53,619 nucleotides of DNA from a virus (taxonomy: Duplodnaviria; Caudoviricetes). The stretch spans positions 1 through 53,619 of IMG/VR virus record IMGVR_UViG_3300020183_000101; one strand, written 5' to 3'. Below the pieces are notes generated by a model, which was not told where the DNA came from, made no database searches, and saw nothing but the letters and a program-made list of their open reading frames with translations. Both the position numbers and the translations under genes were made by a program. Positions 5,935-45,330 of this stretch are shown here, piece after piece (the stretch's first letter is position 1; each line of letters starts with the position of its first letter).

Positions 5935-5941
5935 CTTATTG

Positions 5942-5957
5942 TTTTTTAGTTATTTAT
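5942..5957 (-). promoter_or_regulatory. T4-type late promoter, ATAAATAACTAAAAAA copy 2
   Basis: Identical 16-mer immediately upstream of fibre gene start at 5934. Confidence 0.75.
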
Positions 5958-5963
5958 TCTCTT

Positions 5964-6638
5964 TTATCTCGCAGCATCCCAAGCACACTGAGCACGAATA
6001 CCATCTTGAAGAACATAGTGAAAAAAGATCTGATGATAATATAGACCTTCTTTTTCCACTCTTTTCCCATACCAAGTTTTTTCGTATTCTGTTGGCATTG
6101 GATCACGCCAATGCGGACGTTCGCACCCTTTATAAATCATACCGTCACCAGGTTCAAGATCTACAGATCTATGCTCACCATTTGGAGTTTTAATCCAAAT
6201 CGACCAAGGTTCTTGTAAATTAGTGCTGATATGAACAGTTACAGAGATTTCACACGCAGCTCTATCAGTATGTTTTGTTAATTCTTGTCCAGGAAAATAA
6301 AATCTATCGTAATAATAAGTATCGTATAATTTTCTTCCAATTATTTTTTCAAGTTTGATTCTAATCTGAGAATGAATTTCTCTGTATTGTGGATGATGGT
6401 ACCTGGCAAGAGATCCCTCCACTTGTTGTTCTACTGGGTCGTGATAAAATTTATCAATAGATCCAAAGTAATTTATTTGACCTCTTTCCATTGGGACTGG
6501 ATGATACAGTTCCTCAGGATCCCATAAATTTTTTACAACAAAGTATCCATCCCTATCAAAATCTTCATTTCTAGTCCATGAAGTTCCAGTGTTAATTCTC
6601 TCTTGAAAGAGAAGATCTTCTTCTGTCATTACATCCAT
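5964..6638 (-). CDS. 2OG-Fe(II) oxygenase-family protein
   Basis: LTKHTDR (HxD), CEISVT, GDGMIYKGCERPHWR, QIFFHYV; start moved to ATG 6638 with GAGGTG SD. Confidence 0.8.
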   Translation of the reverse strand: MDVMTEEDLLFQERINTGTSWTRNEDFDRDGYFVVKNLWDPEELYHPVPMERGQINYFGSIDKFYHDPVEQQVEGSLARYHHPQYREIHSQIRIKLEKIIGRKLYDTYYYDRFYFPGQELTKHTDRAACEISVTVHISTNLQEPWSIWIKTPNGEHRSVDLEPGDGMIYKGCERPHWRDPMPTEYEKTWYGKRVEKEGLYYHQIFFHYVLQDGIRAQCAWDAAR

Positions 6639-6645
6639 ATTCACC

Positions 6646-7266
6646 TCACTTCCAACGTGGTCCAACTGTCCATCCAACGATAGACTTTCTAATTCCTTTA
6701 GTTACTTTAAGAACCCTATGTTGTGTTCTTGAATCAAAAAGAATAATTGTTCCTTTCTTTCTGGGTGCAATATAAGATCTTCCAGATTCATCCAGAAGTT
6801 GAAGATTTCCTCCTTCATAATCATCTGGATCTGACAATTGAATTACAAAGGATAATTTGCGGACAAGTTCAATGTTTTCATTCAGAAAATCATTTGCAAT
6901 ACCTTGCTCTCTGTTGCCAACAGATTGTGGTTTATACATGCCAGCAACACCTGCATCATTATGCCAACCATAAAACTCCCCTTCACGATAGCGAGTAAAT
7001 TGAAGACTCTCGCCATCAATGTTCCTTAGATCATATAAAAAGTTTTCACGATTTGCTCTCTGTATATAATGCCAGAGGAATCCAGCAACCCAATGATTGG
7101 TTGGAATCCAGGCGTTTTGTGAATTTCTTCTATCTTTATTCAGTGCATCTCCATGAAGTTTGGAGTCTGCCATTTGATTTTCAAAGTTGTTGCTAACATC
7201 ACTTTCAATAACATCAACGATTTCTTTGGGAATGTCTGTATAGTACCAAATAGATTGAAATGCCAT
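6646..7266 (-). CDS. 2OG-Fe(II) oxygenase (PKHD/prolyl-4-hydroxylase-like)
   Basis: QFTRY..GEFYGWHND, RKLSFVIQLSDPDDYEGGNL, FDSRTQHRV, RKSIVGW motifs. Confidence 0.9.
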   Translation of the reverse strand: MAFQSIWYYTDIPKEIVDVIESDVSNNFENQMADSKLHGDALNKDRRNSQNAWIPTNHWVAGFLWHYIQRANRENFLYDLRNIDGESLQFTRYREGEFYGWHNDAGVAGMYKPQSVGNREQGIANDFLNENIELVRKLSFVIQLSDPDDYEGGNLQLLDESGRSYIAPRKKGTIILFDSRTQHRVLKVTKGIRKSIVGWTVGPRWK

Positions 7267-7291
7267 ACTATTTTAATTACACCTATAATTT

Positions 7292-7320
7292 ATTGTAAGA
7301 TACTTTTTTTGAATAGTCAA
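7292..7320 (-). promoter_or_regulatory. Sigma70-type (early) promoter
   Basis: TTGACT-N17-TACAAT upstream of 6646..7266. Confidence 0.65.
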
Positions 7321-7862
7321 TTTTTGTAATGAAAGTTACCTGCAAGCACTGATCTCCCTTCGCACTTATTTTTAGGGACGCTATGGTAAATTCTACCAGG
7401 CATGATGATTGCCTGACCAGATTCCGCTTTAATTTTCTTTCTACTAGTATCTAGCACAAGAGGAGAGGAACCTTTTGGCGTATTTACATAGTAAATGAAA
7501 GAATAGGAAACATCATGTAAGTGTGAATATGTATAGTCTCCTTTATTATACACAACTCCCCAACAATCACAGAGAGATAATTTGAGAACTGCATCTGTAT
7601 TTACTTTATGAATATAATGGTGTTTGTAGATTAAAGTTTCAATCCAACCCACAACTTGTGCAATATATTCATCCATAATGAACCAATCAGTCATGTTAGC
7701 TTGAACATTTGTAGTTCTTTTTTGGGGATCATTCTTTGAAAGATTGACTATCCTCTCATGTATGAAAGGATTTAATAAAGATGCTCCAGGATGGTTATAA
7801 ATTCCTATTTTGTGATATTCTTTTACTAGGAAATCTAATTTATTAAAATTCAGCATATGCAC
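7317..7862 (-). CDS. 2OG-Fe(II) oxygenase-family protein (HxH type)
   Basis: WGVVYNKGDYTYSHLH, SFIYYV, MPGRIYHSV, RSVLAGN. Confidence 0.85.
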   Translation of the reverse strand: MHMLNFNKLDFLVKEYHKIGIYNHPGASLLNPFIHERIVNLSKNDPQKRTTNVQANMTDWFIMDEYIAQVVGWIETLIYKHHYIHKVNTDAVLKLSLCDCWGVVYNKGDYTYSHLHDVSYSFIYYVNTPKGSSPLVLDTSRKKIKAESGQAIIMPGRIYHSVPKNKCEGRSVLAGNFHYKN

Positions 7863-8472
7863 TCTTCAGACCAAATTTTCCAGTCAAGAAATAATTAAAG
7901 GAGATACAACGTCTTTTCTCTTTAGATTTAGAAACAGGAACAGAATGAAGAACATGTGAAGGGAATAAGACCATTGTTCCATCTGACACTTCTACTCCCC
8001 AATTTTTTGCATTAAAGATATTAAACTCTGATACGTTTGGTTCTAATGTGCAAGGTGCCCAGGTGGGAGATGATTGTGGGCAACTAAAATTTAATACTTC
8101 ACCGCTACCTTCAGGAACTCTGACATAAAAAACGCCACTAAAAAGACTATTGCTATGCAGATGATTAAAACACCAATCTTCTTTTTGATGATAGATTGCC
8201 CATGAACATGCGTGTTTTAAACCATAACTTTTATCAACTTTTAGAATTTCATACAAATAAAATTTTAGATGTGATTCCACAACATCTCTAATATCCGTAT
8301 AATCTTCTCTCAACAAAAGTGCCTGCTCCTTGGACATATATCCGTCCTGGTTATCAGTTCTTTCATATTCTAATTTATCAAGTCTCTCTACAAGTTCAGT
8401 TGGATCAAAGTGATCCAACTTTTTCTTATACACGGGAGAAGAAAATAAAGTATAAACTTCGGGGTGATTCAT
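7843..8472 (-). CDS. 2OG-Fe(II) oxygenase-family protein (TIGR02466-like, HxH type)
   Basis: LFSSPVY start, HLHSNSLFSGVFYV, VLFPSHVLHSV, RRCISFN. Confidence 0.9.
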   Translation of the reverse strand: MNHPEVYTLFSSPVYKKKLDHFDPTELVERLDKLEYERTDNQDGYMSKEQALLLREDYTDIRDVVESHLKFYLYEILKVDKSYGLKHACSWAIYHQKEDWCFNHLHSNSLFSGVFYVRVPEGSGEVLNFSCPQSSPTWAPCTLEPNVSEFNIFNAKNWGVEVSDGTMVLFPSHVLHSVPVSKSKEKRRCISFNYFLTGKFGLKSAYAEF

Positions 8473-8493
8473 GATTCAAAGATATTCAAATAA

Positions 8494-8502
8494 ATTATAG
8501 CA
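8494..8502 (-). promoter_or_regulatory. Extended -10 sigma70-type promoter
   Basis: TGCTATAAT ending ~21 nt upstream of the 8472 start; -35 poor. Confidence 0.5.
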
Positions 8503-8511
8503 CAAATTTTA

Positions 8512-9309
8512 TCAGACAGTAACTGAAGTATTGTTAGTGTAAGTTGTGGGAGATCCATTGATAGATACGACAACTCTTTGCGGTTGTCCAGAATTTCCAC
8601 CATTACTATATGAGGGACTTTGTGCATTTTGTAAAGATGCTGGAACTGGAGATGTCAAGATAAAACCAGATCCTCCCCCTCCACCACCGCCAGTATTGCT
8701 ATCGAAATTAGATCCACCAGAACCTCCACCATAGTATCCACCACCACCTCCAGAATTAGAGTAACAAGTAGGAGCACCTTGCAAGAAACTTCCAGCAGAT
8801 CCTTGACACCCTCTTCCACTATGCCTACCAGCAGCACCGCCAGATCCACTTAAATAACCTGAAGTTGTTCCTCCACCTCCACCAGTTACGTTTGATCTGG
8901 GATTTCCTGCTACACCATTTAACCCCCCACCAGGACCACCACCTCCACCTGATTGAGAACCAAAAGCTCCACCACCACCTGCAATCAGGATAATGTTTCC
9001 TGGAGATACTGGACCAACATAAACTGCAGCATAGTTTCCACCAGGACCATCACCACCACCAAAACGAATATTAAAAGTAGTCCCAGGAGAAACTTGTCCC
9101 CAAGTAATAGAATTTAATCCACCAGCGCCAGAACTTCCAGGTCCACCACCAGCAGTTAATGCTACCGAAGTTCCTGATGTATGAAAGGTTCTCCAAGTAC
9201 CAGCATCATTAATATAACCAGTGTTTATAGTTCTCCAAGTCCCACCGTCATTTACATAAATTGCAGTTGCTGTTCTCCAACTTCCATTATCATTAACGTA
9301 AGCAGTCAT
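8512..9309 (-). CDS. Glycine-rich fibre-tip / adhesin protein
   Basis: Three N-terminal Y(V/I)NDxG(S/T)WRT repeats, then ILIAGGGG and GGGGGYYGGG polyglycine motifs reminiscent of T-even gp38 adhesins. Confidence 0.7.
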   Translation of the reverse strand: MTAYVNDNGSWRTATAIYVNDGGTWRTINTGYINDAGTWRTFHTSGTSVALTAGGGPGSSGAGGLNSITWGQVSPGTTFNIRFGGGDGPGGNYAAVYVGPVSPGNIILIAGGGGAFGSQSGGGGGPGGGLNGVAGNPRSNVTGGGGGTTSGYLSGSGGAAGRHSGRGCQGSAGSFLQGAPTCYSNSGGGGGYYGGGSGGSNFDSNTGGGGGGGSGFILTSPVPASLQNAQSPSYSNGGNSGQPQRVVVSINGSPTTYTNNTSVTV

Positions 9310-9321
9310 TATGTTCCTCCA

Positions 9322-10023
9322 TTATTCGTAATATTCTGTGAGTTTTGGTTTAGTTGGCCATGATTTTTCGTCAAAGAAATCAAATGTTCTAATGTTGGAT
9401 ACATTATCAGGTAAATCACGAAGAGCTTGTCTATAATCTTTTATTTTTTGACTTACTTTAACACCTTTCTCAAGGGCATAAGCAAAAACAAAGTCGGTTT
9501 GTTGAAGTTTTTTATCTCTTTCATATTTAAGATCTAACCAAATTTCAAAGTCTTTTACTTTTAATTCTTCTGGAGTTAAATCACGAACTTCATACTTAGC
9601 ATAGATTTTTTTGTTCTCTTTGTCAATCTCCCACTCTTTTTCAGAAAGAGTTGTATATGTCTGTTCGTAGGTTACTTTTGGTTCGTTGTAAATGTATTCG
9701 TAAATTGTGTAAGTTACGGTTACTTCTTCATCACCATGATCCCACTCTTCAGGTAGATTAGTATGAACTACATGATTGTGTGGTACTGTTTCTGGATAGT
9801 TTTCATGAAGTAGTTTCCATCCATCATTAACAAGAAGATACTCGTCAGATACGAGAGCACCGTTTAAAAAATACCAATTAGGATGAACTCTTGTAGTCCA
9901 ATCTGGAAGTAAATATCTTTTATTCCTCTGTTGTTCATTCCATTCAGCAGTTGGCTCTGGAATTTCATCAGGAATCCAATAATGCTTTTCTTCAGTTTGA
10001 GTTTCTTGTTTATGCCAACCCAT
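9322..10023 (-). CDS. Tail fibre assembly chaperone
   Basis: C-terminal ERDKKLQQTDF...YRQALRDLP...WPTKP signature of phage tail assembly chaperones. Confidence 0.8.
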   Translation of the reverse strand: MGWHKQETQTEEKHYWIPDEIPEPTAEWNEQQRNKRYLLPDWTTRVHPNWYFLNGALVSDEYLLVNDGWKLLHENYPETVPHNHVVHTNLPEEWDHGDEEVTVTYTIYEYIYNEPKVTYEQTYTTLSEKEWEIDKENKKIYAKYEVRDLTPEELKVKDFEIWLDLKYERDKKLQQTDFVFAYALEKGVKVSQKIKDYRQALRDLPDNVSNIRTFDFFDEKSWPTKPKLTEYYE

Positions 10024-10058
10024 TAGAATATTCCCTAAAATAACTAACTAAGATATAT

Positions 10059-10919
10059 TTAGTATTTGTACCAGATGTCTCCATTAGATCCACCAGCTGG
10101 GTTGCCACTAGAAAGTGTTCTATTTCCAAAGGCATTTTGAGAACTGGATCCAAAAGTAGTTGCAGTAATTGCACCAGCACTAAAGTTGCCAGATCCATCA
10201 CGAGCAACAATTGCTGATGCGGTGTTAGCACTCGTAGCAGTTGTAGCACTATTAGGAATAGATGTTAATGAAGCACCAGATCCAGAGAACGTAGTGGCAG
10301 TTACTGTACCATTTACATCTAATGCTGTTGATGGATTTACTTTTCCTACTCCAAGATTGCCACTTACATAAGCCCCACCAGTAACTTGAAGATTTTGATT
10401 TGCGGTTCCAGTTGCTGAAGTTGCTCCAATTAAAAACTCCCCAGTGGGGGCAAGTGTATATCTATATGAAGTTCCATCAAAGACACCAAATCCAGTAAAT
10501 CCATTAGATGTTGGATCTGCGTTAAAAAAGGTATAATTATTATTTGTCGTACTATTAGTGATTCTTAATGCAGCAGCTGCAGAATTTCTAATATGAACTC
10601 CATTAACTGCTGGAGATGGAGTACCAACACCCAAAACTCCTGTTACGAAAGCGCCTCCAGTAACCTGAAGTTTTGCTCCTCCAGTAATACCACTGGCACC
10701 GATGAGAACTGGACCATTACTAAATGTTCCAATTCCAGCGGTATTTACATCTCCAGAAAAACCTCCAGAAAAAGATGTTGCAGTTACAACTCCAGCAATA
10801 GTAACGTTGGTCACTGCAATTCCAAGTGCAGTAATATTACCAGTTACTGTGAGAGATGGAGTTGTTGGACCTGCCGTACCAACTCTGTTTTTTATAGTAT
10901 CAACATTAATCTGTGACAT
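10059..10919 (-). CDS. Tail fibre stalk module
   Basis: MSQINVDTI start, LQVTGGA / LGVG / TATTFSGSGASLT repeats, C-terminal GGSNGDIWYKY. Confidence 0.8.
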   Translation of the reverse strand: MSQINVDTIKNRVGTAGPTTPSLTVTGNITALGIAVTNVTIAGVVTATSFSGGFSGDVNTAGIGTFSNGPVLIGASGITGGAKLQVTGGAFVTGVLGVGTPSPAVNGVHIRNSAAAALRITNSTTNNNYTFFNADPTSNGFTGFGVFDGTSYRYTLAPTGEFLIGATSATGTANQNLQVTGGAYVSGNLGVGKVNPSTALDVNGTVTATTFSGSGASLTSIPNSATTATSANTASAIVARDGSGNFSAGAITATTFGSSSQNAFGNRTLSSGNPAGGSNGDIWYKY

Positions 10920-10933
10920 ATCCTGGATACTAC

Positions 10934-10949
10934 TTTTTTAGTTATTTAT
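10934..10949 (-). promoter_or_regulatory. T4-type late promoter, ATAAATAACTAAAAAA copy 3
   Basis: Identical 16-mer upstream of 10919. Confidence 0.75.
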
Positions 10950-10951
10950 CC

Positions 10952-11560
10952 TCATTTTAAATTCAAATTCAATGATACAGTTATTCTCCTCTTATCTGAG
11001 GTATTTTTTTCAACTAGATGTGGGACAAATGATGGGAAAAATATAATATCTCCTTCTTCTATATCATCAAACTGTTGAATAGGTTGATACATTCTATTAT
11101 TAATTTGATTTGTCACAAATGTTCTTGTGACAACATGAGGATTAAAAAACTTAGGAGATTTATGCACTTGAGGATTATATTCAAGGAAATGAATCATTGA
11201 GAAATGATCTGGATAATGATCATGCCTTTCCTGATAATCGTTTTTATCATAGGCGTTATACCATATAGATCCAATTTCATAATTGGGAAGTTTATTCGTA
11301 TTCACTTGCATTACATGTAAAAATTCGCATATGATATCATGATAGAAATGTTTGTAAGCATTCATGACATTCCTATCAAGATGGTAACTTGTTTTTACAT
11401 CACAATCCCAGTTACTATTTTTACATTTTTCTCCAATATCTTTTTCAATGATCGGCACTAATTGTTTTTTTGCCCAATCATTGAAGTGTCTCTGCCTATA
11501 CTGATATTTTGTCGTATAAAAAGTGGTGGGAAAAAATTCCCATTTCATATTAACTGTCAT
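10952..11560 (-). CDS. 2OG-Fe(II) oxygenase-family protein (HxH type)
   Basis: WYNAY...QERHDH, FSMIHF, EGDIIFFPSFVPHLV, RITVSLN. Confidence 0.9.
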   Translation of the reverse strand: MTVNMKWEFFPTTFYTTKYQYRQRHFNDWAKKQLVPIIEKDIGEKCKNSNWDCDVKTSYHLDRNVMNAYKHFYHDIICEFLHVMQVNTNKLPNYEIGSIWYNAYDKNDYQERHDHYPDHFSMIHFLEYNPQVHKSPKFFNPHVVTRTFVTNQINNRMYQPIQQFDDIEEGDIIFFPSFVPHLVEKNTSDKRRITVSLNLNLK

Positions 11561-11570
11561 AATAATTAAA

Positions 11571-12494
11571 TCAAACTTTTTTTATTCTAATTGCGCCTGG
11601 TTGTACTGCCGATCCCCAAGAACTTGGATCACCTGGGAATGTTCCACCCACACCAAAAGATCTATTTGTCACACTACTTGGATCTGCATATCCATTTGCA
11701 CCTGCGGCACTAAATCCACCAGAAGTATTGTTACCTCCAGCCCCACCAGCCCATCCGCCGCCTCCTCCACCGCCTGAACTATCTCCAGGAGCTACTCCTC
11801 CATATCCACCACGAGCATATCCAGATAATCCTGCGGATGGAGTATTTCCAGCTCCACCTCCACCATATCCACCAATTCCTCTTGGTGCATTTCCTCCAGG
11901 TGAGGTAGTTTGTCTTCCACCACCAGCAGCTCCTCCAGTATTTCCACTGGCACCTTGAGCACCTGCTCCATCAGGTCCAGGGTTACCTGTTGGACCTCCA
12001 CCACCTGCTCCACCAGCAGATCCAGGAGCTGCTTGCCCTCCTCCACCGCCAGCAACAAGAATTTCTGTTCCTGCGGCGCTTGGTGTGAGAGTTAATGCAG
12101 ATCCACCTCCACCACCATAACCAATTGGAGACCCACCAGATTTACCACCTTGCCCCAGATGTATCCAATAGGTTACACCAGGAGAAAATGTATATGTTCC
12201 TTGATTATTTCCACCTCTTCCACCAGCTCCACCACCACCGCCAGCACCATAGACACTAACTTGAGCAGTTAAAGAACCAGAAACCTGAAAACTTCTTGTA
12301 GAATACTCAAAAATTGTAAGATCTCCACTTGCAGTTAGATCCCAAGAAGTTTGACCTCCAGGTAAAGCTGGAGAAATATTAGTTAGTGTTGCCGAAGGAG
12401 GAGGTGGTGGTGGAGCTGGAGGGATGGGTCTTTTTCTAAATCCTTGACCAACTCTAACACCACCAAGAGATGCAATTCTTCCTAAAAAAGGCAT
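11571..12494 (-). CDS. Glycine-rich fibre-tip / adhesin protein with polyproline linker
   Basis: PIPPAPPPPPPS linker; YGAGGGG, ILVAGGGGG, GGGGGWAGG motifs. Confidence 0.7.
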   Translation of the reverse strand: MPFLGRIASLGGVRVGQGFRKRPIPPAPPPPPPSATLTNISPALPGGQTSWDLTASGDLTIFEYSTRSFQVSGSLTAQVSVYGAGGGGGAGGRGGNNQGTYTFSPGVTYWIHLGQGGKSGGSPIGYGGGGGSALTLTPSAAGTEILVAGGGGGQAAPGSAGGAGGGGPTGNPGPDGAGAQGASGNTGGAAGGGRQTTSPGGNAPRGIGGYGGGGAGNTPSAGLSGYARGGYGGVAPGDSSGGGGGGGWAGGAGGNNTSGGFSAAGANGYADPSSVTNRSFGVGGTFPGDPSSWGSAVQPGAIRIKKV

Positions 12495-12496
12495 AA

Positions 12497-13249
12497 TTAC
12501 CAGAAACCTCCGCTTACCGATCCAAAAACTTCATAATTTGTCGCTGTACTTGCCGACCCTGTTACATTAATGATTGAAAAATTAAAAAATGCATATCCTG
12601 TCGTTGTTGTAACGCCAGATACTGCAGCACCTAATGATCCTCCAATCCACCTAATTGTTCTTGATGTATCATTAAGTGTAATTGCAGTGCAAGTTCTTGC
12701 TACTCCTGAAGAACTTACTGCTAAAGTCAATGCTATTGAATGACCATTAAAATCTGATGATGTAGGAATTCCACGAAGATTTACAGTAATGTCTCCAGTT
12801 GGATTAGTGCAAATACCAATATTACCACTACTTGAATTATACGTCAAATCCGCAGTGTTTCCATTAATTAAAACAACCTTCTCAGCGCCAGTTATAACTC
12901 TAAGTTCATTTGGAGCAATTGGAATATTTGTTTCAAATGCCTTCTTTGTATCATTGTAAGTAAATGTTTTATTTGTTTCCCCATAAATTAGAATTCCATC
13001 ACCACTAGCACCAGCATCAGTTGGAGTTGAAGTTGATCCAATACCAACTGACGAAGATCTAAGGTTTAGAACTGGTGTATCAATAGTAACTACACTTGAT
13101 CCAATACTTAATTGATTATTTCTGCCGCTGTAATTAGATGCACTTAAAACAGTGGCTGTAATAATTCCAGTGATGTTGGCTCCTAACGGAAACGAAGGAG
13201 CCCCAGTTCCTGCCTTATTTACAATTGTATCAACTTGTACTTTAGACAT
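12497..13249 (-). CDS. Tail-fibre connector module, paralog of 2090..2986
   Basis: MSKVQVDTIVNKAGTGAP start shared with other modules; C-terminal domain shared with 2090..2986; ATAAATA at 13268-13274. Confidence 0.75.
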   Translation of the reverse strand: MSKVQVDTIVNKAGTGAPSFPLGANITGIITATVLSASNYSGRNNQLSIGSSVVTIDTPVLNLRSSSVGIGSTSTPTDAGASGDGILIYGETNKTFTYNDTKKAFETNIPIAPNELRVITGAEKVVLINGNTADLTYNSSSGNIGICTNPTGDITVNLRGIPTSSDFNGHSIALTLAVSSSGVARTCTAITLNDTSRTIRWIGGSLGAAVSGVTTTTGYAFFNFSIINVTGSASTATNYEVFGSVSGGFW

Positions 13250-13273
13250 TTATTTACACTTTTTGAGTATTTA

Positions 13274-16264: not shown

Positions 16265-16302
16265 ATCCCTGGATAATTATCTTTAAGGTATTTATGATTT
16301 GA

Positions 16303-16518
16303 TCAACCACCAAGAGCGATACTGTACGCAATCGCTAAGGTGTCTATCGCAGTGCTGGAAACTGTCCCAGTTACAACTAAATTACTTGCAGTGAGAATTC
16401 CTGTAACGTTTCCATTATTATCAACATTCAAACTATGATTGATATCAACATCAGATTCTACGGTAATTTTTGAACCAGTTGTTCTTGCTGAAAGTTCGTC
16501 AGCAGCTATTCTAGACAT
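16303..16518 (-). CDS. Mini fibre adaptor (71 aa)
   Basis: GILTASNL fibre motif and C-terminal AIAYSIALGG like 25220..26449. Confidence 0.7.
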   Translation of the reverse strand: MSRIAADELSARTTGSKITVESDVDINHSLNVDNNGNVTGILTASNLVVTGTVSSTAIDTLAIAYSIALGG

Positions 16519-17305
16519 TTGGAATATCTCCTAATTGAAGGACATCAATAATTAAAGTTTTTCCAATACCAACAGTAACACCAACACCTGAAGCGACAGT
16601 TACGTTAGGAATAACTGTAAAAATGAATGTACTTCCATCACCAGCATTTGTAGTATCAAGTGTGATACTTTCGGAAACCGTTGATGCAGCAGAGATATAA
16701 CCAAATAGACCATCACGGTCTCCAACCTGCTCACCAATTACACCAACGGTTGGGAAAGAGATTGAAACTGTGCCACCAACTGATACTGCGGTAACACCTG
16801 TTCCAAGAATTTTAATATCGGTAATTGCGTATCCGACTCTAGCAGTACCAGATTGAATACCAACACCTCTTGGAAGATCATCTAAAAGTGCAGCACTTCC
16901 AGTGAAGGTAGTTGCATTGACACTGGAAGCGGTAATGATTCCAGTTGCTCTAATGTTTCCTGTAGCAGTAAGATCGGAAGTATTAGTTCTACCACCAACA
17001 GTCACATTATCCTGAAAAGTTACTGCAGACTTTGGATCTACTGTGTTTGATACATTATAATCTTCAAAAATTTGAAAGTCTAATACATCTCCACCAGCAG
17101 CAGGAGATTCTAATACAACGGTAACACCATCTCTTGCAGTATAATCAGAACCATCAACTAGATGAACACCATTTCTGAATACAGAAAGGAAGTTGATGTT
17201 ATAACCACCAGGAATAGTAAAAGATGTTTGTCCGTTAGTTGCAGTAAGGCTTATCGTCCTATTAACAATGTTGGACGTAAGCGTTACTGGATTTCCTATC
17301 GTCAT
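16511..17305 (-). CDS. Fibre hub/branch module, paralog of 24074..24664
   Basis: ATNGQTSF...YN...VFRNGVHL...DYTARDG...GDVLDF domain and C-terminal VTVASGVGVTVG motif shared with 24074..24664. Confidence 0.7.
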   Translation of the reverse strand: MTIGNPVTLTSNIVNRTISLTATNGQTSFTIPGGYNINFLSVFRNGVHLVDGSDYTARDGVTVVLESPAAGGDVLDFQIFEDYNVSNTVDPKSAVTFQDNVTVGGRTNTSDLTATGNIRATGIITASSVNATTFTGSAALLDDLPRGVGIQSGTARVGYAITDIKILGTGVTAVSVGGTVSISFPTVGVIGEQVGDRDGLFGYISAASTVSESITLDTTNAGDGSTFIFTVIPNVTVASGVGVTVGIGKTLIIDVLQLGDIPNV

Positions 17306-17313
17306 ATCGACCT

Positions 17314-17329
17314 TTTTTTAGTTATTTAT
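17314..17329 (-). promoter_or_regulatory. T4-type late promoter, ATAAATAACTAAAAAA copy 4
   Basis: Identical 16-mer upstream of 17305, overlapping the previous stop codon. Confidence 0.75.
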
Positions 17330-17985
17330 GTCTGATAGCAATTAACCTCACCCTTTGCCCAGAAAATAATCTGAAAAACTCTACGTGCAATATTAGATTT
17401 AACTTTAGTTACAGTATGCCAGTTCCTATAGTCTTTTGAGTTCTTGAAAAGAATACTAGAGTTATCCTTATATTTAATAGTCAATTTATTTTCAAATTCA
17501 TCAATCTCTGGATTCTTATCGTTATCATTACCGTCCAGAAAAATAAAGTCTCCACCTCCACCCCTCCAACAAAGATGTGGAAAGAAGAAAACGTGTGATG
17601 CTAATTTTCTGCAGCAATCACTATGAGGGCAAAGATCTGATCCATCTTCCATGATGGACCATTCAAAACCAATATCAAAATCATCTATATTTAATAGGTT
17701 CTTAACCTTGTTAATATAGTCTTCACTCTTAAAATAATCTATAAATCCTTCCCACTCAGAATTAATCGCAGAGGTCTCAAACAAATTATCTTTAATTTTT
17801 GAGTTAAAAGATAAAAACTTCTTCTTATGCTCTCTCTGATTGTTTCTACGATTATTGCCATCAAAATCCTCAAACTTAGAAGAACTAGGATATTGCTCCG
17901 TCAATCTATCAAATGTATGAGGATTAAAAGTTTTTTCAGAGAAATATCTATAGTTCCCAATATCTTCAAAATTGAAATTGATCAT
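17326..17985 (-). CDS. 2OG-Fe(II) oxygenase-family protein
   Basis: LCPHSD (HxD), WRGGGGDF, NWHTVTKV, RRVFQI. Confidence 0.8.
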   Translation of the reverse strand: MINFNFEDIGNYRYFSEKTFNPHTFDRLTEQYPSSSKFEDFDGNNRRNNQREHKKKFLSFNSKIKDNLFETSAINSEWEGFIDYFKSEDYINKVKNLLNIDDFDIGFEWSIMEDGSDLCPHSDCCRKLASHVFFFPHLCWRGGGGDFIFLDGNDNDKNPEIDEFENKLTIKYKDNSSILFKNSKDYRNWHTVTKVKSNIARRVFQIIFWAKGEVNCYQT

Positions 17986-18670
17986 AATTTAAATACGTTT
18001 GAACTACAGACAAATCAGCAGGAACATCAACTCCATGAGTAAAATGATCAATCGCATGACAATTGTATTCGTACCCGATTTCTATCCACTTCATCGGATG
18101 AATTTTTTCCAAAACTTCTAAATTAGTTTGTGGTATTGACATAAAATTTTTTAACTGATCTCTAGTGTAAGAATAAACACCAACATGCCTATAACCAGTA
18201 TTCAAGGGGTGACGAGTTATATAAACAATTTTTTTCTGGTAATCATCGGCAATTGCTTTACAGATGTTTTTATCTGCTATTTGAAATTGATCTAAAGGTG
18301 ATATCAAACAAGTTGGATTTTTAGTAATCAAACTTTTTTCGTATAGTCCAATCAAATCTTTTTTAGTAACCAGAGGTTCATCCGCTTGAAGTTCTACAAT
18401 CCTATTCGTTTTAATCTTAGAAATGTACTCGGATATTCTCTCAGTAGAATTATTATGATTACCCGTTATTTCAACAAATATTTTGTTCTTAATACATTCA
18501 TTCAAAATATCGTGATGATCTGTTAAAACGATAACATTATCCTTTCCAAAGGCATCAATTGCATTCCTTGCAGTATGAACAACCATGGATGTTCCGTTGA
18601 TCTTAGAAAGTGCTTTTCCAAAGAATCTAGTGCTACCAAGTCTTGCTGGAATTAAGCAAGTGACATCCAT
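17966..18670 (-). CDS. kdsB: KdsB-like CMP-Kdo synthetase (3-deoxy-manno-octulosonate cytidylyltransferase family)
   Basis: IPARLGSTRFFGKAL, QADEPL, RHVGVYSY, LEVLEK, GVDVPADL motifs collinear with KdsB. Confidence 0.8.
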   Translation of the reverse strand: MDVTCLIPARLGSTRFFGKALSKINGTSMVVHTARNAIDAFGKDNVIVLTDHHDILNECIKNKIFVEITGNHNNSTERISEYISKIKTNRIVELQADEPLVTKKDLIGLYEKSLITKNPTCLISPLDQFQIADKNICKAIADDYQKKIVYITRHPLNTGYRHVGVYSYTRDQLKNFMSIPQTNLEVLEKIHPMKWIEIGYEYNCHAIDHFTHGVDVPADLSVVQTYLNYDQFQF

Positions 18671-19437
18671 AGGTCTCTATAAGAATTACCATACATCGTA
18701 CCACAGGTATTACAGTTTTTGCAAGGAGAAATGTCTCTATTTTCTAAAAGAACTTTCCTATACTTTTGATAGGTCAAATCCTTCCAGACATCCATAAGAT
18801 GATTAGAGAATATATTTCCCAAGATATACTTTTTAGACCAGTCCTGAGGGCATAGGTAAGTGTCTCCGTTGTGATTAATGTACATGTAATATAATGGATA
18901 GTTACAAGGTTTTGTTACATCAATTTCTCCACCATAATTCACATATCCAGATCTATTTGTAAGAGTATCAAAAGACTGCCATCTTTCTCTTAGAGAATAA
19001 CTCAGACCATTCAATAAACTCTCAAATTTTTCTATTTGATGCGGACCATCATACATGCTAATAGAAACATGATCAGGTAGTTCCGCAATTTCTCTTGTCA
19101 GAAAATCACCATTCGTAACTAACTCTGCAGTCCATTTGGTACTTTTGACTGCTTTAATAATTTCCGAAACATTTGGATTTTGTAAGGGTTCGCCAAATCC
19201 ACAGAAACAAAGAATTCCTTCAAATCCAATTTCCTCCAGATCCTTTTTAATTTTCAGTGCCTGTTCAACAGACATGTATGATCCTTCATCTTTCCAACCA
19301 TGCGCTCTAGGGCAGAAATCACATTTACGATTACAAGTTGGACTGATGTTGATCTCAAGAAATGATGGAATAGGATGCCCATCAAATAAAATAACTTTAT
19401 CCGTTCTTTCTTTTTTCCAAGTTTTATAGTCCATCAA
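18652..19437 (-). CDS. Radical SAM protein with SPASM/twitch domain
   Basis: CNRKCDFC (CxxxCxxC), GFGEPL, TNG, and C-terminal PC...I..NGD.YLC...LGNI...PCKNC. Confidence 0.9.
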   Translation of the reverse strand: MMDYKTWKKERTDKVILFDGHPIPSFLEINISPTCNRKCDFCPRAHGWKDEGSYMSVEQALKIKKDLEEIGFEGILCFCGFGEPLQNPNVSEIIKAVKSTKWTAELVTNGDFLTREIAELPDHVSISMYDGPHQIEKFESLLNGLSYSLRERWQSFDTLTNRSGYVNYGGEIDVTKPCNYPLYYMYINHNGDTYLCPQDWSKKYILGNIFSNHLMDVWKDLTYQKYRKVLLENRDISPCKNCNTCGTMYGNSYRDLWMSLA

Positions 19438-19937
19438 AAATAATTAAAGTTGAGGGTAATTCTTCTCCAATCATCAGTACAGTTTGTGCTGTTATGAAGA
19501 ATGTTCGACTTAAATATTGCCAGACGATTTTCTACGCTTTCAATTTTTGCACCATCTTCAAGTGCGGTGTATCCATTATTGGAATTAACATAATAGACTG
19601 CAACAAAAAGATCATGAGGCGAATCATAATGCTTCCCATGAGTTACAAATTGATTTTGATTTACATATAAGTTTCCTTTCACCCTAGACAATGCTTTTGG
19701 TTTTAAAATATTTAAGATTGGAAGTAGAATTTGATAATCTCTAGAGACATGAACATTATAATCAGTATGATATTCAAAGAAAGTGTGATAGAAATAAGAA
19801 AATGGAAATGCCTTTTCCTCTATGTCCTCAGTGATATTTTCTTGAAAATACCAATCACAATGATTCATCATGTAATCTTTTAGTTGAAAAAAATGCTCTG
19901 GAGATAAAGCATTATCAATGACCTCATAATTTTTCAT
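19434..19937 (-). CDS. 2OG-Fe(II) oxygenase-family protein
   Basis: VIDNAL start, RVKGNLY, HYD, AVYYVNSNNGYT, SVENRLAIF...HNSTNCTD..RRITLNFNY. Confidence 0.85.
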   Translation of the reverse strand: MKNYEVIDNALSPEHFFQLKDYMMNHCDWYFQENITEDIEEKAFPFSYFYHTFFEYHTDYNVHVSRDYQILLPILNILKPKALSRVKGNLYVNQNQFVTHGKHYDSPHDLFVAVYYVNSNNGYTALEDGAKIESVENRLAIFKSNILHNSTNCTDDWRRITLNFNYF

Positions 19938-21009
19938 AAAAATCTTTTGCTTTCTGAGAAATAGTTACTGGTTTAAAATATTCACAATTTTCTTTTGTCT
20001 TTTCAAATAAATCATGAGGTTTGTTGAAAGGGAGTACCTCATAATCCTTATGCTTATCCCCTGTTAGTCTAACATAGTTTTCGTGCAACACCAATAGGTC
20101 ATCATACAGTTGTTCAGGTGGTTTAATTCTGTCAAGAGAGAGGAAGTTATAAATCCAGTAATTCTTGTCCTCAAGATCATTCACAAAAACATCCTGAGCA
20201 TAAGTCATAAAGTCTCGCCAAATCTGAGGTTTTCTATCCCAAGAAACAGTATATGTTTTTGAAGTTGCTTCATGAAATTTTCTCTGATTTTTTAAATCCC
20301 CAAGATCATCTGGTAGATCTGGTTGATAATGTATATCACTCTTGTATATTTTTACAGGTTTTTTACAGAAAGCAGCATATACCATACTAGAAGTCATCCC
20401 ATTAGTATAGACAACTTCTGATAATTCTAGAATATTTTTTTGTTTCTTTCTCCAATCAACATCAAATCCATTGAATCCTAAACAGTAAATCTTATCAACT
20501 ATTTCTCTCGGATAATGAGTCCAATAATATTCGTAGTCTTCTGGAAATGCAATATAAACTGGATTATCATGTCCCAACCCTTTAAGTTCATCAATTAAAT
20601 CTTTAATTTTTTGAGGATCTTTAGACAACCAAGTTTTAAATGGATTATCTCTCTTCGGTAAAAATACAGTTTGATATCTAGGAGTTGCTTTTATCGCATG
20701 AGAATCGTAAAGATACTCTGCATATGCAAAGGGAGAACAACCACCATAACGACCCCTCTTCTCTACTTTTTTATTACACTCATTACCCCAAAAATACTTA
20801 GCACTAGGGTATCCCATGATTTCACACCATGGAACTGGATTAAAAAAATTTTCTATACCAACACTATTATTTGTTAAAAACAAAAAATTAGATCCACACC
20901 AATCATTTAAGATTGTTTTTTGAGAAAAAGATGAATGTGGATCTAATTTTGTTTCTCTATTTACAAATATATTTCCGTTGATATCAAAATCAATTATTGG
21001 TAGATGCAT
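19924..21009 (-). CDS. Putative GT-B-fold glycosyltransferase-like protein
   Basis: SEVVYTNGMTSSMVYAAFCKKPVKIY resembles the GT-B donor-binding segment; clustered with kdsB. Confidence 0.45.
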   Translation of the reverse strand: MHLPIIDFDINGNIFVNRETKLDPHSSFSQKTILNDWCGSNFLFLTNNSVGIENFFNPVPWCEIMGYPSAKYFWGNECNKKVEKRGRYGGCSPFAYAEYLYDSHAIKATPRYQTVFLPKRDNPFKTWLSKDPQKIKDLIDELKGLGHDNPVYIAFPEDYEYYWTHYPREIVDKIYCLGFNGFDVDWRKKQKNILELSEVVYTNGMTSSMVYAAFCKKPVKIYKSDIHYQPDLPDDLGDLKNQRKFHEATSKTYTVSWDRKPQIWRDFMTYAQDVFVNDLEDKNYWIYNFLSLDRIKPPEQLYDDLLVLHENYVRLTGDKHKDYEVLPFNKPHDLFEKTKENCEYFKPVTISQKAKDFYEKL

Positions 21010-21041
21010 TAAAATTTCAAAACTCTATTTTATATATTTTA

Positions 21042-21452
21042 TTACTCTTCCAGTCCAACTACATTTCCATTTTCATCAATAACTAAACCTTGAGTTCCTT
21101 CTCCACCATTATTTGGTGGTCCTTCAACAGAAATCCAAATTTTGTGTCTATCGTCATAATAGTATTCTGATTCATTTCCTGGGCAAGGAACCGCTGGCAC
21201 CCACTTAAATGTTTCCAGATCAAGAGTTCTAGACCCTGCTACGTCAAGAGCATTTTTCTCTTCAAAAGCATCATACTCTGGATGATACTTTGCTCCGATG
21301 CAGGCAAAGTTTTTTCTAGAACCACCATCTCTCCAAGTTTGAATCCATTCTGTGGCGTTTGGGAAAGTATTGATTACCTCTTGAGAAGCAACGATAACTT
21401 CCTCAATAATATGATTGCCATTTACTCTTGCAAAATACGTTAAATCTTCCAT
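21042..21452 (-). CDS. Acidic fibre-tip-associated protein (putative chaperone)
   Basis: YFARV...VIVA...WIQT...RKNFACIG..Y....DAF...KW.P.VP.P pattern; directly follows the Gly-rich tip gene. Confidence 0.55.
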   Translation of the reverse strand: MEDLTYFARVNGNHIIEEVIVASQEVINTFPNATEWIQTWRDGGSRKNFACIGAKYHPEYDAFEEKNALDVAGSRTLDLETFKWVPAVPCPGNESEYYYDDRHKIWISVEGPPNNGGEGTQGLVIDENGNVVGLEE

Positions 21453-21461
21453 AATTCAATT

Positions 21462-22487
21462 TTATACGGGTACAGATATAATAACTAGACCATTTGATCC
21501 TGTTCCACCGCCAGAGTTGGATTCTCCACCACCTCCGCCACCACTACCATAATTAGATGCTGATCCAGCATTTCCAGGACCTCCACCACCAGGACCTCCT
21601 GGCGCACTTCCGTTGGGGTTCCATTGTCTAGATCCATGAGGAGGTCCAGGACCAGCTCCTCTACCACCTCCACCGCCACCAGCACCAAAACTATATGGAG
21701 TTCCTGCAATAGTTAAAGAGATTGCAGCTGTTCCAGTTGAACTATTCGTAGGAGAGGCTGCTAATCCACCACCTCCACCACCTTGTCCAAATCCTGGATT
21801 AGATGCATATGAGTTACCACTAAATCCTTCTGGTGGGTTAAATCCCCCTTCATTTCCAGACCCACCACTAGTTCCAGTGTTAAAAAATGGACCAGATCCA
21901 CCACCATTACCACCGTTTTGACCATTATTACCACCACCAACACCACCACGTCCTCCACCAGTTGCACTAAAACCAAATGCGCTGGATGGATTTCCTTTAG
22001 TGTTTGCACCACCCCCAGATCCAACAGTAACTGTTACAGGAACTCCTTGAATTTGAGGATTTTGTAATGCACCATTGATGGCATTAGGAATTGTTTCATT
22101 AAATGAAATTGCAGGTGCTCTAAAAGTGGCAGGAATACCAGGAAAACTTGCACGAATTCCTCCTCCTGCTCCACCGCCACCTTGACCAAGTTGAGTGCCA
22201 GGAGAACTTCCACCCCCTCCACCACCTGCAACTACAAGATAATCAACATAGGTTGAATTCGTTGAGACATCAGACCTAATAACTCTAGAGAATCCAGTAT
22301 TAGAATTTTTTGTTGGATTATAACTAGATCCAGATTTTACATTAACTGATCCAGTTGATGTAAATACAAAATAATTCCTAGTTCCATCAGTACTGGTACT
22401 GGCTGCTCCAGTTTGACCAGTAATTGTGATGGACTTAGTAATATTATCAGTAACTCTGATACTTGATCTTAATCTTTGAATTGGCAT
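21462..22487 (-). CDS. Glycine-rich fibre-tip / adhesin protein
   Basis: FTSTG...VDYLVVAGGGGGG...VTVGSGG...ATGGGRGG...GGTGSNGLVIIS Gly-rich domain. Confidence 0.75.
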   Translation of the reverse strand: MPIQRLRSSIRVTDNITKSITITGQTGAASTSTDGTRNYFVFTSTGSVNVKSGSSYNPTKNSNTGFSRVIRSDVSTNSTYVDYLVVAGGGGGGSSPGTQLGQGGGGAGGGIRASFPGIPATFRAPAISFNETIPNAINGALQNPQIQGVPVTVTVGSGGGANTKGNPSSAFGFSATGGGRGGVGGGNNGQNGGNGGGSGPFFNTGTSGGSGNEGGFNPPEGFSGNSYASNPGFGQGGGGGGLAASPTNSSTGTAAISLTIAGTPYSFGAGGGGGGRGAGPGPPHGSRQWNPNGSAPGGPGGGGPGNAGSASNYGSGGGGGGESNSGGGTGSNGLVIISVPV

Positions 22488-22500
22488 ATTAGTTACCTAA

Positions 22501-22875
22501 TCACTGAATTCTTTCGAAAGAACATGTAGCGTGAATAGTGTTAATTGGATTGACTTGAACAGTAATGGATCTACCTTCTTCAACATAGATTGAAGATGCT
22601 TTATCCATGAGAACCAAACTGGTTCCTGTCGCAATACCAATGTTACTAGAAAGTGAGAAACTTACTCCCAGACCAGCAGCAGCAGTATGAGTTCTTACTG
22701 TTGCATAACCAACTGTTGAGTTGGTTATATTTGAAAGGGTAAGGTTGTTGATTTTTAGAACAGCACCACTTCCAGCAGCATTTGAAACGAGAACTGTTGG
22801 AGCAGCAGTGTCTAAGTTGATTGCGGTTGTAAAACCGACAATTGTTGTTACACCTACAATATTTGGAGCAGCCAT
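22501..22875 (-). CDS. Small beta-sandwich fibre adaptor
   Basis: MAAPNIVGVTTI...KINNL.LSNI...SLVLMDK..SIYVEEG.SI; TATAAATA at 22904-22911. Confidence 0.65.
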   Translation of the reverse strand: MAAPNIVGVTTIVGFTTAINLDTAAPTVLVSNAAGSGAVLKINNLTLSNITNSTVGYATVRTHTAAAGLGVSFSLSSNIGIATGTSLVLMDKASSIYVEEGRSITVQVNPINTIHATCSFERIQ

Positions 22876-36309: not shown

Positions 36310-37017
36310 TCAGTTTTCCTTGACATCATAGTGGTAACCAGCAACAGAGTACTCAGAATTATCTCCAGGGTAGTCTGCTGGCGTTTCACCCTCATATTCT
36401 ACAATCAAGTTTTCACCATCGGTGCGAGTTCCATGAATAAGATAGAAGCAATCAATTGCTGATGCATTACCAGACTTAATAATAATCTTTGATCCCCATT
36501 CAATCTTATCTACGATCAGATCTTGAGATGTTCCAATCTGAGTAAGAGATACCGTTATACTTTCAGGATCAACAAATCCCTTCCAATAATCTGGAAGATC
36601 AATTACATTTGCTCCTGTGAGTCTTCCCCTAAAATAAACAGCATTTTCTGGTCCCTCTAGACAAGTATGGCGAAGTCTCCATCCTGGTTTGTTTGGATGG
36701 GGAATATCAAAGTTTTTCTTATTAGAAAGGCTATGACCTGGGCAAGTAACATCAATACCAGATATAAGATTACCAGTTGCTCTAAAATTAACAACACCCG
36801 AAGAGTTACTTGCTACAAGAGCAGATGTGGCACCACCATCTAATGCAATATAAGCATAGTCTGCAGGAGAATCAGAGGTTTTTACAAGAGTCATGGCGAT
36901 TAAATTTAGATTAAAAGATCCACCATAAGTATCTGTTGAAAAGTCATTGTTATCTCTAAATTCAAATGGAGTTCCTGGTCCAGTAAATGTGCCGTAATTT
37001 TCAAATGTAAATGACAT
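36310..37017 (-). CDS. Virion protein with C-terminal intramolecular-chaperone-like domain
   Basis: KNFDIPHP...LRHTCLEGPENAVYFRGRL...LPDYWKGFVD..SITVSLT; paralog of 37017..37676. Confidence 0.7.
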   Translation of the reverse strand: MSFTFENYGTFTGPGTPFEFRDNNDFSTDTYGGSFNLNLIAMTLVKTSDSPADYAYIALDGGATSALVASNSSGVVNFRATGNLISGIDVTCPGHSLSNKKNFDIPHPNKPGWRLRHTCLEGPENAVYFRGRLTGANVIDLPDYWKGFVDPESITVSLTQIGTSQDLIVDKIEWGSKIIIKSGNASAIDCFYLIHGTRTDGENLIVEYEGETPADYPGDNSEYSVAGYHYDVKEN

Positions 37018-45295: not shown

Positions 45296-45330
45296 AATCA
45301 TGCGTATAATAGTATTACTATTTAACAACT

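Follow-up and report, generated by a model that had tools for sequence, protein, structure and literature searches.

Genes for iron- and 2-oxoglutarate-dependent (Fe/2OG) oxygenases reside behind genes for glycine-rich (Gly-rich) fibre tips in IMG/VR virus record IMGVR_UViG_3300020183_000101, and the arrangement recurs in other viral loci. Linkage between tips and oxygenases is a real and frequent feature, restricted to one side of the tip, yet a great many loci lack it. The window analysed is the whole contig, which measures 53,619 bases and is estimated to be 26% complete. Pfam and PHROG scans of its open reading frames (ORFs) indicate the fibre and baseplate region of a T4-like cyanomyovirus. 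Lake-water metagenome runs contain DNA near-identical to the window, and the nearest cultured relatives are the Synechococcus phages Bellamy and S-SM2; the window phage is an uncultured freshwater T4-like cyanomyovirus related to both. Our preferred reading, which is a tentative one, is that the fibre-associated accessory enzymes serve Gly-rich tips, or their folding intermediates, in general, and are not tip-specific sets. Within this reading we infer every substrate, and indeed that any modification takes place at all.

Recurrence was analyzed in three samples of loci. In all samples ORFs have ATG starts and at least 60 amino acids (aa), and were picked greedily so as not to overlap; oxygenases were labelled by transitive phmmer searches from the seven proteins of the window; a Gly-rich tip is a protein of at least 120 aa with at least 18% Gly. 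Near-duplicate loci were collapsed, and locus counts ignore kinship, so that many linked loci may share descent. In sample 2, which is anchored on the PF13640-like oxygenase, 70 of the 80 loci are non-redundant. At most two genes upstream of the oxygenase run a Gly-rich ORF is present in 21 of 56 loci, whereas the downstream count is 1 of 55 (Fisher p 1.3e-6). The upstream count is 14 of 28 at 60% identity or more, and 5 of 10 at 40–59%. Sample 3 includes 79 new loci anchored on a chaperone-like family, and is blind to oxygenases; the 75 non-redundant loci hold 39 oxygenases among 885 genes. A tip is found at most two genes upstream of 24 of the 39, against a mean of 7.4 in shuffled gene orders (p <=2e-4), and downstream of 5, against 7.3 in shuffles. 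Co-occurrence of tips and oxygenases across phages had been put forward in the original prediction as a check; in samples 2 and 3, whose anchors are independent, linkage far exceeds that in shuffled orders, on the downstream side of the tip only. Sample 1 includes 80 loci anchored on a 996-aa structural gene, 59 of them non-redundant when the window is counted. With the window, 5 oxygenase runs lie directly behind a tip unit, 1.6 being expected (p 0.014); tips reside without any oxygenase in 11 loci.

A chaperone-like gene directly follows 24 of the 39 oxygenases in sample 3, against 3.5 in shuffles (p <=2e-4). In 16 of the 75 non-redundant loci an oxygenase of the PF13759 family is wedged between the tip and the chaperone-like gene, with gaps of 0–5 nucleotides (nt) and a median of 1 nt from oxygenase to chaperone-like gene. 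The recurrent module is made of a tip, a gene of about 83 aa, a PF13759 oxygenase and a chaperone-like gene, in this order; assignment to PF13759 was confirmed in 5 of 6 proteins tested. The protein of about 83 aa belongs to no family and features the shared motif LRPGAKWE...TRWDDPRP; it was observed in loci L170, L177, L179 and L184, among others, at about 5100–6400.

In the window every gene of the enzyme and tip stretch is carried by the minus strand. The stretch is a series of cassettes that start with a word of the ATAAATA type. Cassette 1 starts with ATAAATA words at 22904 and 22910, followed by genes for a 124-aa protein, a 341-aa tip, a 136-aa chaperone-like protein, a 361-aa protein, a 167-aa oxygenase-like protein, a radical S-adenosylmethionine (SAM) enzyme, a KdsB-like protein and a 219-aa oxygenase-like protein; gaps from 22875 down to 17326 all measure 32 nt or less. 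The next two cassettes, with words at 17314 and 16289, lack enzymes. Cassette 2 (word at 13268) encodes a 250-aa stem, a 307-aa Gly-rich tip and a PF13759 oxygenase. Cassette 3 (word at 10934) encodes a 286-aa fibre protein, a 233-aa assembly chaperone and a 265-aa tip, followed by four oxygenase-type genes. Past it, the word at 5942 opens a 969-aa fibre gene (3025–5934). Tips, their neighbours and the late-promoter-like words are listed below.

22501–22875, minus strand: first gene of cassette 1, 124 aa, probably a fibre stem or adaptor; homologues precede Gly-rich genes elsewhere.
21462–22487, minus strand: Gly-rich tip of 341 aa, 28% Gly, 7.0% Pro; PF21722 at 23.5 bits, cut-off 24.3.
21042–21452, minus strand: chaperone-like protein of 136 aa; the family recurs directly behind Gly-rich tips.
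12497–13249, minus strand: stem or adaptor gene of cassette 2, 250 aa, behind ATAAATA at 13268.
11571–12494, minus strand: Gly-rich tip of 307 aa, 31% Gly and 8.8% Pro, some of the prolines forming a run close to the N-terminus; assigned on composition and position.
10059–10919, minus strand: fibre protein of cassette 3, 286 aa.
9322–10023, minus strand: protein of 233 aa whose C-terminal part is a tail-assembly-chaperone domain (PF16778).
8512–9309, minus strand: Gly-rich tip of 265 aa, 28% Gly and 4.9% Pro; a relative of Bellamy gp28.
26491–28986, minus strand: Gly-rich tip of 831 aa, 21% Gly; PF12810 at 45.9 bits, cut-off 24.5.
17314–17329, minus strand: late-promoter-like 16-mer; opens the cassette 16511–17305 and overlaps the stop codon of 17326–17985.
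10934–10949, minus strand: late-promoter-like 16-mer; opens cassette 3.
5942–5957, minus strand: late-promoter-like 16-mer; opens the 969-aa fibre gene 3025–5934.

The 16-mer ATAAATAACTAAAAAA is found in four exact copies in the window, all on the minus strand (2992, 5942, 10934, 17314), a number reached in 0 of 100 shuffles. Each of the three enzyme blocks ends against one copy, as had been predicted; the fourth lies behind the 969-aa fibre gene. The canonical T4 word TATAAATA is restricted to 22904 and 22910. As a general end mark of oxygenase runs the late word was rejected: outside the window it follows 4 of 31 runs, against a background of 100 of 760. The claim that enzyme blocks trail Gly-rich tips is true for three of the four window tips, the gene order being confirmed, as was the lack of enzymes at the tip starting at 26491. 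By hand estimate the chance of this placement is about 4e-4 if blocks were free to land at any of about 40 junctions, and about 0.03 if only about 10 operon ends were allowed, four of them ending in a tip.

A Pfam Gly-rich model is passed at its cut-off by the 831-aa tip only, the 341-aa tip falling just under. The 307-aa and 265-aa tips have no Pfam family, and the 341-, 307- and 265-aa proteins match no solved structure in a sequence search of the Protein Data Bank (PDB). Their tip status rests on a Gly content of 28–31%, on the place behind stem genes, and on the link between the 265-aa protein and Bellamy gp28 (phmmer E 2.4e-10). The tip at 21462 has no tblastn match in 50,697 phage records, in a search whose low-complexity filter may hide tips. 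It had been predicted to come with a chaperone; the 136-aa protein has no Pfam family, and its family does recur right behind Gly-rich genes. The Pfam tail-assembly-chaperone gene at 9322–10023 precedes the tip at 8512, and does not trail it.

The window had been credited with seven oxygenases, all behind tips. Four of the seven exceed a Pfam cut-off, two fall under it, and one (5964–6677) has no match.

10952–11560, minus strand: PF13759 oxygenase, 48.3 bits; 10 nt behind the tip at 11571, with no promoter word between.
7843–8472, minus strand: PF13759/TIGR02466 oxygenase; PF13759 at 63.7 bits.
7317–7862, minus strand: PF13759 oxygenase, matching the first half of the model only, 33.7 bits.
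6646–7266, minus strand: PF13640 oxygenase (O0), 56.8 bits, cut-off 27; 82% identical to Bellamy gp46.
5964–6677, minus strand: conserved partner gene (O1), overlapping O0 by 32 nt, with an invariant H-x-D...H.
17326–17985, minus strand: probable Fe/2OG oxygenase of 219 aa, a weak call; PF13640 at 20.6 bits, under the cut-off of 27.
19434–19937, minus strand: probable Fe/2OG oxygenase of 167 aa; PF13640 at 21.8 bits, under the cut-off of 27.

No 2OG family was found among the other 24 window ORFs scanned, and no halogenase or JmjC match among 55 window ORFs scanned with Pfam. The TIGR02466 cut-off (62.5 bits) is reached by 7843–8472 (65.3), while 10952–11560 (34.0) and 7317–7862 (29.6) are below; the solved chains nearest to 7843–8472, 2rg4 and 3bvc, are uncharacterised proteins. 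The iron triad of O0 (H102, D104, H183) is invariant in seven homologues. In O1, residues H136-x-D138 and H189 are invariant in six aligned homologues, within a motif H-x-D...H-W-R; candidate triads of the other five oxygenases were picked by eye in the translations. Profile comparison gave no link between O1 and the PF13640-type family (probability 0.7%). O0 resembles the PKHD-type hydroxylases PiuC and Sbal_3634 (E 1e-5 over residues 137–200), and is far below the NCBIfam PRK05467 cut-off (58 vs 143). Judged by sequence family, O0 is like prolyl hydroxylases and PKHD-type hydroxylases, an activity that is predicted.

Two labels in use for these families deserve comment. O1 is called a ferrochelatase in PHROG 2954/3531 and in the GenBank record of S-SM2 (036). 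No support for this identity was found in Pfam, NCBIfam and PDB sequence searches and the H-x-D...H motif is kept, and the label looks spurious. The 167-aa family is named "denV: DNA endonuclease V" in 252 GenBank cyanophage records matched (PHROG 274). The window protein ends in a motif resembling that of a double-stranded beta-helix, and has no match to solved structures in a sequence search. The denV label looks doubtful because Pfam gives the protein only a weak 2OG oxygenase match, and may be a propagated mis-annotation.

The original prediction held that each tip has its own enzyme set, and that the two travel as a unit. This found no support, at least for the block 5964–8472: similar O0-O1 pairs stand behind tips that cannot be aligned, most tips have no enzymes, many oxygenase arrays have no tip, and the oxygenase runs mostly have a -10 box of their own. 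The wider idea that tips are tailored survives, in a sharper form. Across the window, L018, L029, L039, Bellamy and S-SM2, O0 is 71–95% and O1 62–81% identical, and the genes upstream of the pair (210–1122 aa) give no BLASTP match below E 0.05; the one in S-SM2 measures 919 aa and, at 13% Gly, is not Gly-rich. A partner gene lies directly behind the PF13640-like gene in 48 of 64 cases, at a median gap of 2 nt, and O0 and O1 probably work together. In contigs of the lake runs the O0-O1 region has a depth of 50–110, and adjacent tip, chaperone and PF13759 genes 1–19; depth over contigs is a crude measure, and the contrast is as expected if the enzyme core is shared and the tips are private.

Contigs of all four lake runs join position 10949 to 13230, skipping 10950–13229, i.e. 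the whole of cassette 2 from promoter to promoter. The joint is weak: the flank measures 22 letters, and the joint may stem from a relative or from the repeated promoter and N-terminus. If it is real, cassettes are gained and lost promoter to promoter. The fibre module of Bellamy (L085) holds seven Gly-rich tips of 338–821 aa, and in its region 5184–28643 the cassette grammar seen in the window is repeated about ten times: the late word NTAAATAACTA is followed by a small stem and a Gly-rich tip.

Tips with an oxygenase run behind them are richer in proline (6.7%) than other tips (2.8%; 48 vs 62 non-redundant proteins, p 2e-8), and Gly content and length are the same in the two groups. Runs were sorted by self-built hidden Markov models into PF13640-like and PF13759-like. 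Median tip proline is 6.4% before runs including a PF13640-like oxygenase (n=35), 3.2% before PF13759-only runs (n=30), and 3.1% in unlinked tips (n=127; p 9e-10 and 1.5e-6). Counted by locus, in the 122 of 202 non-redundant loci that hold tips, tip proline is 6.3% where a PF13640-like gene is present (52 loci), 3.1% where only PF13759-like genes are (23), and 2.9% where neither is (47). The background in other proteins of the same three groups is 3.8, 4.3 and 4.1%. Tip proline stays at 6.3–6.7% across oxygenases that share anything from 33% to 84% identity with that of the window. Six of the seven Bellamy tips have 5.9–8.6% Pro. Among the relatives of the window, an oxygenase run lies behind a tip in 5 of 6 high-proline and 2 of 16 low-proline loci (p 0.004, counted by hand); the high-proline loci are scattered on the tree of the anchor protein (6 rows, 6 changes). 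The proline lead is new and exploratory. A specific enrichment of X-Pro-Gly was rejected, Pro-Gly being proportional to proline.

The block 17326–21009 of cassette 1 encodes, besides the two small oxygenase-like proteins, the following.

19924–21009, minus strand: transferase-like protein of 361 aa, putative GT-B-type fold; model at a predicted local distance difference test score (pLDDT) of 94, near TagF, TarL and a capsule polymerase.
18652–19437, minus strand: BtrN-like radical SAM enzyme with a SPASM/twitch-type domain; PF04055, PF13186.
17966–18670, minus strand: KdsB/KpsU-like cytidylyltransferase; PF02348 at 90.6, cut-off 22.6.

The radical SAM protein exceeds the cut-offs of PF04055 (45.9 vs 29.5) and PF13186 (52.9 vs 21.5), its CxxxCxxC motif reads C-NRK-C-DF-C in the translation, and it is matched over nearly the full length (residues 24–248, E 2e-19) by BtrN (4m7t), a sugar-type radical SAM dehydrogenase. 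The KdsB-like protein matches solved KdsB/KpsU CMP-Kdo synthetases (E 8.7e-20), and reaches no NCBIfam KdsB equivalog cut-off (best 149.6 vs 193). The 361-aa protein has no Pfam or NCBIfam family and no PDB sequence match with E <0.5. It has no tblastn match in the 50,697 phage records, and no confirmed relative in a viral-contig library. Very large libraries gave 4 close and 32 profile-level relatives, none with a glycosyltransferase family, and none is assigned to the 28 relatives that could be aligned. The fold model built from these 28 sequences (pLDDT 94) was compared with solved structures by VIA-align, in which best Z scores of 7–8 are common without kinship. Nearest, and all of GT-B type, are the CMP-bound capsule polymerase 8a0c (Z 8.8, 235 residues aligned, root-mean-square deviation 4.7), TarL (Z 8.8) and TagF (Z 8.7), with 222–235 residues aligned among the three, followed by UDP-GlcNAc 2-epimerases (Z 7.4–7.8); the best Foldseek hit is weak (E 1.4e-3, TM score 0.29). 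Judging from the model, the protein reads as GT-B-like, with a putative TagF-like fold. A 2170-base metagenome contig (L086) features the order transferase-like gene, 167-aa-type oxygenase and radical SAM gene at 35% identity, the radical SAM gene being of another type than in the window. The block as a whole reads as a recently acquired sugar cassette, for cytidine-nucleotide activation and transfer of a sugar-like donor.

According to the preferred reading, the fibre module is a row of cassettes; in each, a late word leads a short stem gene and a Gly-rich receptor-binding tip, in some cases along with a small chaperone-like gene. Tips would be of the Pam3 gp24 or S16 gp38 kind, and three of the cassettes bear accessory enzyme genes at their 3' ends. 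PF13759 oxygenases are the enzymes nearest to the tip, placed elsewhere between the tip gene and the chaperone-like gene. The PF13640 oxygenase and its uncharacterised partner would hydroxylate prolines of proline-bearing Gly-rich tips in the phages carrying them; prolyl hydroxylation by this pair is the most specific prediction that the reading makes. The block 17326–21009 may make a sugar-like donor activated by a cytidine nucleotide, and pass it on to an acceptor; a BtrN-like radical SAM dehydrogenase and a KdsB-like cytidylyltransferase would act there alongside the two small oxygenase-like proteins and the TagF-like GT-B transferase. The preferred reading is favoured by the linkage in two independently anchored samples, the tight gaps in cassettes 1 and 2, the proline correlation, the recurrence of the O0-O1 pair, the coherence of the sugar cassette, and findings of Iyer et al. 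(2010) and Enav et al. (2018). That tips are tailored in all these ways, with hydroxyproline made by O0 and its partner on all tips, PF13759 enzymes acting during chaperone-assisted folding, and a private sugar on one tip, is rather unlikely.

Several results weigh against a service of the enzymes to the tips. Read-through from late words fits the packed cassette 1 and the 10-nt gap before 10952–11560. Across all loci a median of 49 nt separates the tip or chaperone-like gene from the first oxygenase, and an exact TATAAT is found in 17 of 25 such junctions, against 54 of 378 controls, gap-matched at 25–153 nt (p 9e-9). Two spacers of the window have such signals.

8473–8511, minus strand: spacer of 39 nt; its extended -10-like box, TGcTATAAT, precedes the oxygenase run.
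7267–7316, minus strand: spacer of 50 nt that includes the sigma-70-like promoter TTGACT-17-TACAAT.

Most oxygenase runs have a -10 box of sigma-70 type to themselves, and would be transcribed separately. Promoters of the sigma-70 type serve early genes in T4-like cyanophages. The overall promoter scan of the window is not above chance (75 vs 63.1, standard deviation 8.5), and no terminator-like site was found at block ends in a scan of the window. Among further points on the same side, sample 1 without the window has 3 of 35 oxygenase runs behind a tip, 1.24 being expected (p 0.11), and 13 of its loci have oxygenase runs and no tip; in sample 3, 33 of 52 loci with a tip and a chaperone-like gene carry no oxygenase there. 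The window tip at 26491 has no enzymes, only one of the seven Gly-rich tips of Bellamy (gp44) has oxygenases behind it (gp45–gp48), and in both Bellamy and S-SM2 the complete genome has other 2OG matches, a long way from the fibre genes. The proline test was made post hoc, being one of 17 features tried, and is confounded with sampling, as nearly all loci holding PF13640 come from sample 2; in sample 1 alone the locus-level contrast is not significant (11 vs 11 loci, p 0.65). Within loci, tips adjacent and not adjacent to the oxygenase have 6.6% and 6.4% Pro (10 of 13 loci higher, p 0.11), and Pro-Gly dipeptides increase no more than proline as a whole does. A mobile module of a proline-rich tip and an oxygenase, inherited by shared descent, would give the same pattern without catalysis. 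The sugar block has a low content of guanine plus cytosine (GC; 0.29–0.32 outside Gly codons, vs 0.34–0.35 in the neighbouring tip) and no counterpart among 239 viral loci examined, and therefore looks like a recent insertion.

Many of these points suit an explanation that is possible, although on balance doubtful, i.e. that the enzymes are morons, independently transcribed accessory genes that settle at the recombination-prone 3' ends of tip cassettes and whose function is unrelated to fibres. Functions proposed in print are 2-oxoglutarate drawdown under nitrogen stress, nucleic-acid repair and secondary-metabolite chemistry, and the published readings are on this side, as far as the available text of Sullivan et al. 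(2010, PMC3037559) and Iyer et al. (2010, PMC2938197) goes. The -10 boxes in front of the runs, the variable gene content among relatives and the many arrays without a tip are as expected of morons, as are the low GC of the block 17326–21009 and its depth of about 1–7 in lake metagenome contigs, conserved window parts having 50–160, although depth taken from contigs is crude and low cover is not evidence. The joint of the four lake runs that skips cassette 2, weak with its 22-letter flank, and the hand estimate of about 0.03 for blocks limited to operon ends, point the same way. Morons would hardly account for a bias that is one-sided and strong in two samples (21/56 vs 1/55; 24/39 vs 7.4), for the 16 loci in which a PF13759 gene is squeezed in, at gaps of 0–5 nt, between tip and chaperone-like gene, or for a proline correlation specific to the PF13640-like type. 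A preference for any operon end fails to explain the oxygenase positions, because outside the window the late word follows the runs only at the background rate.

It is improbable, in our view, that the enzymes act on the host envelope, altering a surface glycan or receptor late in infection, which would block superinfection or spare progeny from loss on cell debris; enzymes would then lie beside adhesins since the same receptor selects both. The sugar cassette fits this best, as a cytidylyltransferase, a TagF-like fold and a BtrN-like dehydrogenase are envelope-glycan enzyme types, and the block shows the strain specificity that is usual in receptor-linked genes, and is part of a tightly packed operon led by a late promoter. 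Cyanomyophages, P-SSM2 among them, carry lipopolysaccharide-related genes, and KdoO, a 2OG dioxygenase, hydroxylates Kdo in some bacteria. An action on the envelope leaves unexplained both the PF13759 genes between tip and chaperone-like gene and the proline content of tips; the KdsB equivalog cut-off of NCBIfam is not reached, and scans that were not aimed at such features showed no signal peptide, membrane anchor or lipid-carrier enzyme.

Cyanophage oxygenases have been described before. Tandem arrays of dioxygenases and halogenases, as in Syn9, were proposed to make secondary metabolites, and co-encoded tail-collar or collagen-like Gly-rich proteins were predicted to be substrates of bacterial 2OG dioxygenases (Iyer et al. 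2010, PMC2938197, available text). The window resembles Syn9 in having several distantly related Fe/2OG dioxygenases in tandem (four, 5964–8472) in a T4-like cyanophage. In contrast, its arrays are short, with no halogenase or JmjC match in the 55 ORFs scanned, and a linkage to fibre tips is not mentioned in the available text of that paper. The bacterial operons are alike in that a co-encoded Gly-rich or fibre-like protein is the proposed substrate, a prediction in both cases; they differ in being cellular and having sulfotransferases, whereas in the window the enzymes accompany a module of a phage virion, and include a cytidylyltransferase and a GT-B-like protein. In the parts seen of Sullivan et al. 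(2010, PMC3037559), 2OG oxygenases and a "ferrochelatase-domain" gene are listed across 16 cyanomyophages, and roles in 2OG/NtcA signalling or DNA repair are proposed. In phage S-TIM4 adapting to poorer hosts, a 2OG gene is among the 6 non-virion genes of 20 mutated (Enav et al. 2018, PMC6224464, in part).

Bellamy gp44–gp48 (MF351863) and S-SM2 034–038 (GU071095) hold the same core of PF13640 oxygenase (80–82% identity) and partner (63–64%), flanked by PF13759-type genes and at the same place in the fibre module. The upstream gene differs, being a 351-aa Gly-rich one in Bellamy and a 919-aa one, not Gly-rich, in S-SM2, and the two regions (25–40 kb) have no close match to cassette 10952–11560 and none to the sugar cassette. 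A Gly-rich cyanophage tip has been solved bound to its chaperone, Pam3 gp24 and gp25 forming a stable complex (Yang et al. 2022, PMC9608196); the available text mentions no tailoring enzyme, a further point against the tailoring of tips. Window tips would be like those of Pam3 gp24/gp25 and S16 gp38 in their Gly-rich distal domain, for which conserved glycines form the scaffold, in the hypervariability of the tip, and in the small chaperone gene directly downstream, as far as the available sources go. They are unlike in that three of them have no sequence match to solved chains, and enzymes are not mentioned with the model tips in those sources. The literature searched holds nothing that links oxygenases to fibre tips, and no function for PF13759. 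Virion proteins of mycobacteriophages are glycosylated by phage-encoded glycosyltransferases, and chlorella viruses have viral prolyl 4-hydroxylases. In both, structural or proline-rich proteins of a virus are the target of an enzyme that the virus itself encodes, as is proposed here for the window; enzyme families, hosts and target proteins are different.

Other features of the window lie outside the tip cassettes. A gene with a CP12 domain, a host-like Calvin-cycle regulator, is found at 45083–45328 (minus strand), between baseplate hub and tail protein genes. A 1587-aa virion protein (38347–43110, minus strand) has three PA14 stretches, a carbohydrate-binding type of domain. Beside the fibre module, two adjacent paralogues of 235 and 219 aa (36310–37676, minus strand) both belong to PHROG 17490. 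The 1044- and 1124-aa proteins encoded at 46742–49876 and 49880–53254 (minus strand) have a common N-terminal PHROG 35997 region, and the former also a weak amidase_2-like stretch.

Cyanomyophages carry many Fe/2OG oxygenases, whose substrates are only guessed at in the available text of Sullivan et al. (2010, PMC3037559) and Iyer et al. (2010, PMC2938197). The one-sided placement behind tips, along with the twofold proline content of tips near the prolyl-hydroxylase-like type, make tailoring testable. If tips are not tailored, the result is a strong insertion hotspot behind tip cassettes. If they are, host range would be set partly by post-translational chemistry, tip sequence by itself would predict it incompletely, and the orphan 2OG oxygenases of cyanophages would have a first substrate.

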